Origin: Candidatus Jordarchaeia archaeon
Lineage (GTDB): Archaea > Asgardarchaeota > Jordiarchaeia > Jordiarchaeales > Freyrarchaeaceae
Direction of reading: 5' to 3'
NCBI GenBank assembly: GCA_018383835.1
Contig: JAHAWR010000017.1
Span: forward strand, 1-15,368
Length of the DNA stretch: 15,368 nt
Below, piece by piece: positions 1,466 to 1,624 of this stretch (position 1 is its first letter; each line of letters begins with the position of its first letter). Below the pieces are notes generated by a model. The model was not told the DNA's origin, did not search any database, and was given only the letters and a program-made list of their open reading frames with translations. The position numbers were made by a program, and so were the translations under genes.

Positions 1466-1486
1466 TGCTGGGCGCCATGACGTGAA
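1466..1486 (+). other. 5' leader arm of the 5S processing stem, plus the BHB central-helix strand and the first two bulge nucleotides (predicted to be removed)
   Basis: TGCTGGGCGCCATGA (1466-1480) pairs with TCATGGCGTCCAGCA (1610-1624) as 15 bp with one G-U. CGTG (1481-1484) pairs with CACG (1603-1606). AAA (1485-1487) is a 3-nt bulge. Confidence 0.8.
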
Positions 1487-1608
1487 AGTCAAGCCCACAT
1501 GCGATTCGGCGAGTACTACTGTGCGGGAGCCAGTGGGAAAGCCGAATGTTGGTGCTACGGCGCCGACCATAGCATGTGGGGTCTACCCGTTCCCATTCCG
1601 AACACGGA
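1487..1608 (+). rRNA. rrf: 5S rRNA, circularly permuted gene (3' half encoded before 5' half); the coordinates are the 122-nt unit predicted to be excised and circularised
   Basis: Rotated, the sequence reads GCGCCGACCATAGCATGTGGGGTCTACCCGTTCCCATTCCGAACACGGA|AGTCAAGCCCACATGCGATTCGGCGAGTACTACTGTGCGGGAGCCAGTGGGAAAGCCGAATGTTGGTGC(TACG). Canonical 5S elements are all present. Helix II is 1573-1580/1494-1501 (perfect 8 bp). Helix III/loop C carries CCGAACACGGAAGTCAAGCC. Helix V is 1504-1510/1541-1547. Loop E shows GAGTA/GAAA. Helix IV is 1516-1521/1531-1536. Helix I is 1548-1555/1560-1567. Confidence 0.85.
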
Positions 1609-1624
1609 TTCATGGCGTCCAGCA
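1609..1624 (+). other. 3' trailer arm of the 5S processing stem (last bulge nucleotide plus outer helix)
   Basis: GAT (1607-1609) is the second 3-nt bulge, immediately 3' of the central-helix strand CACG. TCATGGCGTCCAGCA (1610-1624) is complementary to 1466-1480. Confidence 0.8.

Follow-up and report, generated by a model that had tools for sequence, protein, structure and literature searches.

A circularly permuted 5S rRNA gene in Asgard archaea, with a processing stem that predicts maturation by the tRNA-splicing machinery

How could a functional 5S ribosomal RNA (rRNA) be produced from a gene in which the 3' part of the molecule is encoded ahead of the 5' part? The question is raised by a short locus in a contig of Candidatus Jordarchaeia archaeon (assembly GCA_018383835.1, contig JAHAWR010000017.1, positions 1–15,368, forward strand; these 15,368 nt are hereafter the window). 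A first-pass annotation of the window had drawn attention to nt 1466–1624, where two complementary flanks enclose a 5S rRNA-like insert and form a bulge-helix-bulge (BHB) element of the kind cut by the archaeal transfer RNA (tRNA) splicing endonuclease. Comparison with related loci, together with base-level statements re-checked by script and with a repeat finder, leads us to interpret nt 1429–1641 as a stand-alone, single-gene transcription unit for a circularly permuted 5S rRNA, with one promoter and one terminator. The proposal as a whole, namely that this dedicated permuted-5S unit yields a transcript that would be cut by the tRNA splicing endonuclease (EndA) and ligated by RtcB into a circular 5S rRNA, is given a probability of roughly 0.8.

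The identity of the insert was examined using the Rfam 5S model RF00001. At its gathering score (38 bits) no 5S match was obtained in the window or at any Asgard locus (window and 20 loci scanned), which is attributable to the permutation of the gene and is not evidence against 5S homology. In E-value mode, a scan of window positions 1380–1720 gave two sub-threshold matches in swapped order: nt 1559–1608 matched the 5' half of the model (to about position 49; 21.4 bits) and nt 1487–1557 its 3' half (about positions 48–120, from AAGUCAAGCC onward; 19.1 bits). An equal pair of half-matches was present at locus L006 (loci outside the window carry the prefix L). Once the two parts were exchanged and the loop between them removed, the resulting 118 nt aligned over the full length, with no rearrangement, with a canonical 5S rRNA of Haloterrigena, itself scoring 94.6 bits in Rfam. 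Based on these matches and the covariation described below, the insert is identified as a 5S rRNA in which the 3' part (1487–1555) precedes the 5' part (1560–1608), as the first-pass annotation had proposed. The 3' portion holds the 3' strands of helices III and II, helices V and IV with loop E, and the 3' strand of helix I (1548–1555), and the 5' portion holds the 5' strand of helix I (1560–1567), loop A, the 5' strands of helices II and III, and loop C, ending in CCGAACACGGA; these and all other elements of the unit lie on the plus strand.

The ancestral ends of the molecule meet in a hairpin. Helix I is formed by GCGCCGAC (1560–1567) and GUUGGUGC (1548–1555), which pair over 8 bp and are closed by the tetraloop UACG (1556–1559). 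Helix I showed compensatory changes in L001 and L005 and has 9 bp in Baldrarchaeota and 8 bp in Hodarchaeota, with one A·C mismatch in two of the three Hodarchaeota sequences; the A·C mismatch in the 5S of L017 is restored to A-U in L025. The cap is UACG in the stem lineage J1, CACG in J2 and UUCG in Baldrarchaeota and Hodarchaeota, that is, a UNCG/YNCG tetraloop in all four stem lineages.

The remainder of the 5S body is conserved in the same way. An alignment of ten re-ordered Asgard sequences with the canonical Haloterrigena 5S contained 53 invariant columns, including CCGAAC, AAGCC, GAGUACU and GGGA, and RNAalifold recovered helices II, III, IV and V, with compensatory changes in 18 of 32 pairs. 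Pairing was found in 95.2% of cells, as against 31–40% when the partners were slid, and none of 500 shuffles reached the observed value on any of five measures. With covariation in both the 5S-body helices and helix I, the gene is under purifying selection for the 5S fold and is no decaying fragment. Folding of nt 1487–1608 as a circle gave a three-way junction with a 9-bp helix II, an arm of helix V, loop E and helix IV, and the capped helix I; the three-way junction and the tetraloop-capped helix I were likewise obtained from circular folds of Jord/Freyarchaeia and Baldrarchaeota sequences. The 5S three-way junction was not recovered in the circular minimum-free-energy fold of Hodarchaeota. 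The Rfam family mtPerm-5S, which describes a permuted mitochondrial 5S, gave no match in the E-value scan of nt 1380–1720; the break at the locus studied here lies in helix III, in the beta domain.

The flanks of the insert have a precise geometry. The leader TGCTGGGCGCCATGA (1466–1480) and the trailer TCATGGCGTCCAGCA (1610–1624) form 15 consecutive pairs, 14 of them Watson-Crick and one G-U (G1472-U1618), and pairing ends directly outside 1466 and 1624. The repeat finder returned the same element as inverted repeat I2 (1466–1480 and 1610–1624, 15 nt, 93% Watson-Crick, 129 nt apart), among the best in the window. Immediately inside, CGTG (1481–1484) pairs with CACG (1603–1606) as a 4-bp central helix, and two 3-nt bulges, AAA (1485–1487) and GAT (1607–1609), each lie 3' of the central helix on their own strand. 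In the mature RNA, the alignment places the CACG strand within helix III. Further inward only U1489-A1601 and C1490-G1600 pair, after a G1488·A1602 mismatch. The script thus reproduced exactly the 15-bp helix, the 4-bp helix and the bulges of the first-pass annotation, and bore out its description of the inner helix as weak and of the motif as relaxed. Its judgement that chance is an unlikely explanation also held: shuffling the flanks 200,000 times never produced both an outer helix of at least 9 bp and a 4-bp central helix in the required register.

The archaeal splicing endonuclease cuts after the second bulge nucleotide, and the predicted cut positions 1486/1487 and 1608/1609 rest on this rule. 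Cutting there would free nt 1487–1608, a 122-nt RNA whose joined ends read CCGAACACGGA directly followed by AGTCAAGCC, the canonical sequence of loop C and helix III. The first-pass annotation had predicted this release and held that an error of one nucleotide at either site would break the junction. This is correct for an error at one site, but a concerted shift at both sites leaves the product intact: each bulge has A as its second nucleotide, so that moving both cuts one position back, to follow the first bulge nucleotide, would yield an unchanged RNA.

Signals for a dedicated transcript flank the stem. A TATA box, TTTATATT (1435–1442), lies 23 nt before it, close to the 24 nt or so given in the first-pass annotation, with a sequence resembling a transcription factor B recognition element (AAAAGC, 1429–1434) just upstream; together they make up the promoter (1429–1442). 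A T4 tract (1638–1641), 13 nt past the stem, is a likely archaeal terminator and matches the T-tract noted earlier. Transcription would start at about nt 1464–1467, at the foot of the stem.

The same design was then sought elsewhere with a permuted-order pattern (AGUYAAGCC, then AGUAC, then CCGAACNCGGA), which was scanned in a collection of species-representative genomes, where it found seven loci, and in JGI metagenomes, where it found 11; two false positives were among them. True matches came from Jordarchaeales, a metagenome-assembled genome (MAG) labelled 'Thermoproteota', two Baldrarchaeota and one Hodarchaeota MAG, together with metagenome contigs that repeat or closely match these. The permuted architecture was found in about 14 distinct sequences from Jord/Freyarchaeia (window, L001, L002, L005, L015, L006 and L023), Baldrarchaeota (L020, L022, L027, L031 and L032) and Hodarchaeota (L017, L025 and L026), in independent assemblies from NCBI, JGI, ENA and Logan. 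One of the false positives, L028, was rejected as a chance match. The other, Haloterrigena salina L019 (NZ_AOIS01000069.1, 1562–1816), was the only cellular one and was rejected as tandem canonical copies around N; these copies lie downstream of a 23S gene, and the second is degraded and contains N, which looks like assembly collapse or duplication. The 'Thermoproteota archaeon S9B3_HD70' MAG (L023, JAPDJY010000015.1) carries a permuted 5S with flanks nearly identical to those of the Freyarchaeota locus L006, and its NCBI label is probably wrong or too coarse.

In the Jordarchaeales group the permuted 5S is followed directly by a conserved open reading frame (ORF; 1733–2613), and in all contigs with this neighbour at 72–90% protein identity (L001, L002–L004, L005, L015–L016) the permuted 5S is directly upstream of it. 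In a more distant Freyarchaeote (L006/L007; neighbour protein 62% identical) it is on the other strand, about 1 kb away, and no 5S adjoined the neighbour gene in Jordarchaeum sp. L008–L014 (47–48% identical). The promoter AAAGCTTTATATT stands at an equal distance in all Jord/Frey relatives, with a T tract downstream. Baldrarchaeota and Hodarchaeota have A/T-rich TATA-like boxes 19–22 nt upstream of the stem, and T4–T7 tracts occur within about 5–20 nt past the stem in every relative.

Comparison of the stems themselves indicated that the pairing is maintained. Every distinct sequence has an outer helix of 11–16 bp, a central helix and exactly three plus three bulged bases, with a predicted RNA of 122–125 nt. 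Pairs were counted, and controls run, by script on the geometry; alignments of the mini-precursors made with MAFFT put in gaps by homology and were therefore unsuitable. Over 11 outer and four central pairs in nine distinct sequences, 99.3% of cells pair, as against 32–46% when the strands were slid by 1–3 nt and 63% when they were shuffled among sequences. Compensatory stem substitutions in related genomes, suggested as a check in the first-pass annotation, were indeed found, with changes on both sides in 13 of the 15 stem and central pairs. L005, for example, has two in its outer stem (A1480-U1610 to G-C and U1478-A1612 to C-G), and L006 has three more. The four groups have the outer stems GGGCGCCAUGA, GGGCACCGUGG, UGCAACGCCUG and GUGCGGCAUCC. 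Homology is seen between the first two, which differ by three double compensatory changes and one change from G-U to G-C; the last two are unrelated in sequence, as are stem sequences between classes generally.

The central motif exists in two registers, and these are the most informative part of the comparison. The window clade and Baldrarchaeota have the central helix CGUG/CACG, bulges AAA and GAU/GAA and a predicted cut between GGA and AGU. L006/L023 and Hodarchaeota have CUGG paired with (A or U)CGG, bulges AAG and AAA/AAU and a predicted cut between GGAA and GU; relative to the window clade, the leader of L006/L023 is 1 nt shorter and the trailer 1 nt longer. Despite this shift the predicted ligated junction, CCGAAC(A/U)CGGAAGU(C/U)AAGCC, is the same in every lineage and in both registers. 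Selection therefore appears to act on the joined product, as a model of cleavage and ligation predicts.

These observations suggest the following route to a mature 5S rRNA. The transcript would begin at the stem foot and run through the leader, the 3' two-thirds of the 5S, the UACG tetraloop, the 5' third of the 5S and the trailer. Leader CGUG would pair with CACG of 5S helix III, producing the 4-bp helix with two 3-nt bulges, a relaxed BHB. EndA would cut both bulges and release nt 1487–1608 with a 5'-OH and a 2',3'-cyclic phosphate, and RtcB would join these ends as it does for tRNA introns and for 16S and 23S pre-rRNA circles. Ligation would restore CCGAACACGGAAGUCAAGCC of helix III and loop C, upon which helix III, its 3' strand previously tied up in the central helix, could form. 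The product would be a covalently closed circular 5S rRNA of 122 nt. Helix III has a conserved AA bulge at the break, so the three bulge-derived bases retained in the product would be naturally unpaired. EndA cleavage and RtcB ligation are established in archaeal RNA processing (PMC7714728, PMC10515664, PMC4731332). A tRNA-Met gene with a BHB-flanked intron in the window was counted as a sign that the splicing machinery is in use, and in complete Freyarchaeia and Atabeyarchaeia genomes 92–95% of tRNA genes have introns, often at non-canonical positions (PMC11291895). On the strength of the comparative evidence we consider it highly likely that the locus works as a permuted 5S gene whose transcript matures by BHB cleavage and ligation, the two enzymatic steps being taken from what is known of archaeal RNA processing.

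Several observations weigh against this reading, some of them concerning the motif. Measured against the canonical hBHBh' motif, the central part is as expected (a 4-bp helix and two 3-nt bulges on opposite strands in 14 of 14 distinct sequences), and the outer helix, for which at least two Watson-Crick pairs are required, has 11–16 bp, with 132 of 132 cells paired over the first 11 positions. The inner helix h', for which at least two Watson-Crick pairs are likewise required, is weak in the window and essentially absent in Hodarchaeota and L006; the motif is therefore of the relaxed hBH or bulge-helix-loop type, not canonical hBHBh'. The first-pass annotation had added that such a form is tolerated by a 'crenarchaeal-type endonuclease', a remark not supported as written, the host being an Asgard archaeon. 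In L006/L023 the central helix is reduced to three pairs and a G·A mismatch. The BHB fold also lies above the minimum-energy fold, by 1.7 kcal/mol in the window and by 1.7–5.6 kcal/mol across lineages, the minimum-energy fold keeping the outer stem but exchanging the central helix for a CCG-AACA-CGG hairpin.

The other contrary points concern the product and the gene complement. A 121-amino-acid frame stays open through three laps of the circular 5S; with this frame as query, ORFs crossing the junction, as RNA-derived contigs might carry, were sought in a collection of 5.8 billion protein sequences and gave no match. The comparative data fit a ligated circle and a nicked, two-ended molecule alike. 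Sun et al. (2021; PMC9723677) report 'a 5S rRNA gene' in the MAG of Ca. Jordarchaeum madagascariense, its colinearity unstated; only six tRNAs were counted in the same MAG, which shows that standard tools cope poorly with these genomes. It is possible that a second, canonical 5S gene lies elsewhere in the genome, the analysis having covered individual loci, and the supplements of PMC11291895 contained no 5S gene counts. The joint claim that the mature ribosomal 5S is the circle and that it is the only 5S in these genomes is given little better than even odds.

Whether the circle would persist is a separate matter. Several archaea re-open their circular pre-16S and pre-23S intermediates (PMC10515664, PMC12918454), and permuted tRNAs, so far as summarised in PMC7758197, are re-opened at their natural ends; the 5S might similarly be permuted, circularised and then re-opened at or near the tetraloop, giving a conventional linear 5S with ends at helix I. 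We regard this as improbable. The connector is only 4 nt long: every lineage has a minimal UNCG-type tetraloop there, and neither a spacer nor a recognisable processing signal is present. Nor, to our knowledge, does 5S rRNA need free termini. Native 5S ends joined by four nucleotides are tolerated in E. coli ribosomes (PMC7283268), and circular signal recognition particle (SRP) RNA and circular 23S rRNA are known as end products. For these reasons the mature 5S is most likely a covalently closed circle and not a re-opened molecule, and the predicted circle would be incorporated into ribosomes.

If the precursor were cut and left unligated, the mature 5S would have its ends in the AA bulge of helix III and be either a linear permuted molecule or one that the leader/trailer stem keeps together. 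Such linear permuted 5S rRNAs do occur in organelles, for example in brown-algal mitochondria (PMC4267664), the break falls where the RNA is naturally bulged and could tolerate a nick, and the comparative data conserve the total sequence, which does not prove ligation. The exact 3-nt/4-bp/3-nt geometry of the BHB in every lineage, even after the register shift, is however hard to explain without the endonuclease, and the 5'-OH and cyclic phosphate ends that EndA leaves, kept together by a helix, are the usual RtcB substrate and are ligated in all known archaeal cases; if uncut, a 15-bp stem in helix III and loop C would occupy a conserved contact surface. An unligated product is accordingly seen as slightly less probable again than a re-opened one. 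That the locus is a rearranged pseudogene, or an artefact assembled from tandem copies, with a working 5S elsewhere, is hardly credible. Tandem 5S copies can imitate the permuted order, as in the Haloterrigena case, and a working canonical copy elsewhere is conceivable, the comparison having covered loci and not whole genomes; but the same architecture recurs across the independent assemblies, the flanks are not 5S sequence, the tetraloop closes helix I and no second copy follows, the 5S helices and the stem covary across three classes and are clearly under purifying selection, and the promoter and terminator are conserved. The reading in which a permuted 5S precursor is cut by EndA and closed by RtcB is thus the one set against known systems below.

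The locus has the features of a permuted non-coding RNA gene: the 3' part lies upstream of the 5' part in one unit, the ancestral ends are joined by a short linker, a splicing motif is found at the new termini, and the predicted cut and ligation restore the canonical internal sequence. The closest mechanistic precedent is the permuted SRP RNA of Thermoproteus, which is cut by EndA, ligated and works as a circle (Plagens et al., 2015; PMC4731332), followed by permuted tRNA genes. Like the SRP RNA, the 5S is a universal structured ribonucleoprotein RNA with its 3' part encoded first; in each, a splicing-endonuclease motif flanks the new termini, which fall within a region important for function, and in both cases the gene was overlooked by standard annotation. 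The present case differs in the RNA concerned and in its hosts, Asgard archaea instead of Thermoproteales, and at least three classes instead of a few species; circularisation, shown for the SRP RNA, is predicted for the 5S locus. Permuted tRNA genes, known from Cyanidioschyzon merolae, other algae and a single archaeon (Soma, 2014, as relayed in PMC7758197 and PMC10085705), share the arrangement with the 3' half first in one transcript. According to the same summaries, tRNA circles are re-opened, as tRNAs need free termini, whereas the 5S locus has a spacer-less 4-nt tetraloop, which argues for a permanently closed helix I.

Archaeal pre-16S and pre-23S circles (PMC7714728, PMC10515664, PMC7758197, PMC12918454) resemble the 5S locus in their long leader/trailer helix carrying a BHB. 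EndA cuts and RtcB ligates these precursors, circular rRNA enters ribosomes in several lineages, and circular or permuted mature 23S rRNA exists in archaea (same sources). Those genes are, however, colinear and have their natural ends joined, while the order of the 5S is permuted and ligation is needed for a conserved internal part. In the permuted mitochondrial 5S of stramenopiles (brown algae; Valach et al., 2014; PMC4267664; mtPerm-5S) helix I is likewise a closed hairpin with the ends elsewhere, but that RNA is organellar, has its ends at the junction of the alpha and gamma domains instead of in helix III, involves neither BHB nor ligation and is linear and permuted in its final form. An engineered permuted 5S of E. 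coli (Huang et al., 2020; PMC7283268) also has its native ends joined by a 4-nt connector, with new ends in loop C or loop D, and demonstrates that a ribosome can work with helix I closed; unlike the Asgard RNA it is synthetic, bacterial and tethered into 23S rRNA, and is not a free circle made by splicing enzymes. A search of the full-text literature for permuted or circular 5S rRNA returned only the linear permuted stramenopile mitochondrial 5S and unrelated usages concerning plant 5S rDNA. The organellar RNA is the sole 5S case in a 2023 list of natural RNA permutations (PMC10085705), and a 2026 paper on archaeal rRNA circularisation states that 16S and 23S 'but not 5S' undergo BHB excision and circularisation (PMC12918454).

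The genes around the permuted 5S bear on its annotation. The product of ORF 1733–2613 (plus strand) has a 100% identical counterpart in a 'Candidatus Freyarchaeota archaeon' MAG and only nine other homologues among the 5.8 billion sequences; where a source is named it is Freyarchaeota, Jordarchaeales or Jordarchaeum, which marks the window as DNA of an Asgard archaeon. These homologues were obtained with the ATG-start form, a look-up from the TTG start having returned no record, and the protein had no Pfam match. Every relative has a small opposite-strand ORF that overlaps the 3' end of this gene. Two further ORFs, 1344–1643 (plus strand, 99 amino acids) and 1365–1628 (minus strand, 87 amino acids), overlap the 5S gene and are spurious. 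In assembly GCA_038820475.1 the coding sequence QW526_02840 (P0005, 370 amino acids; L005 4001–5113) is extended at its N terminus across the permuted 5S (locus positions 4006–4128), and P0006 is similarly long (367 amino acids), compared with 293–300 amino acids in other relatives; the excess length of QW526_02840 is a protein mis-annotation caused by the hidden RNA gene.

Intron-containing and atypical tRNA genes were noted at several of the loci. The tRNA-Met(CAU) gene of the window (9987–10,083, minus strand) encodes its 3' CCA and has an intron of about 20 nt at a non-canonical position between the anticodon arm and the T arm; the intron is bounded by a 4-bp CGAG/CUCG helix and an inner GCGU/GCGC helix, with 3-nt bulges (AUU and ACC) of the same handedness as those of the 5S locus. 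ARAGORN found no tRNAs in L005, L006, L017 or L020, and Rfam detected intron-containing tRNAs in L017 and L020. In L017, a Hodarchaeota MAG, the 5S precursor (3455–3625) is preceded on the same strand, at a distance of about 75 nt, by a tRNA gene (3294–3379) that scores weakly in Rfam (34 bits) and probably contains an intron. Beside the permuted 5S of L006, 1 kb without a called gene (2940–4000) holds GC-rich segments that are tRNA-like on the minus strand, for example GGUGCCGCCGUAGCUCAGCAGGGAGGC...; neither ARAGORN nor Rfam found a tRNA there, and the pieces may represent multi-intron or otherwise disrupted tRNA genes. Elsewhere in the window, nt 3192–8139 encode a DUF2070 membrane protein followed by a four-gene 2-oxoacid:ferredoxin oxidoreductase cluster (gamma, delta-ferredoxin, alpha, beta), an arrangement also seen in Jord/Frey relatives. 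Further along are genes for an S-adenosylmethionine methyltransferase, a radical-SAM/SPASM protein, a URO-D-like protein, a HAD hydrolase and a thioredoxin.

If the interpretation is correct, then as far as found in the literature no cellular (non-organellar) 5S rRNA gene was previously known to be permuted, and no 5S rRNA had been predicted to arise through the tRNA-splicing machinery. The case is one of a known repair principle newly applied to ribosomal RNA, in Asgard archaea and across at least three classes. Annotation with covariance models misses the gene, and such genomes appear to be without 5S under the Minimum Information about a Metagenome-Assembled Genome (MIMAG) criteria. That these lineages share a break point in the AA bulge of helix III would suggest that the permutation arose long ago within Asgard archaea or, alternatively, that it was transferred repeatedly or evolved convergently. 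Were the permuted gene the sole 5S gene, ribosome biogenesis in Jord/Freyarchaeia, Baldrarchaeota and Hodarchaeota would be strictly reliant on tRNA splicing endonuclease and RtcB. Hodarchaeota have been argued to be the closest archaeal relatives of eukaryotes, and a circular 5S rRNA would then be present in the ribosomes of lineages that are pivotal to the debate about how eukaryotes arose.

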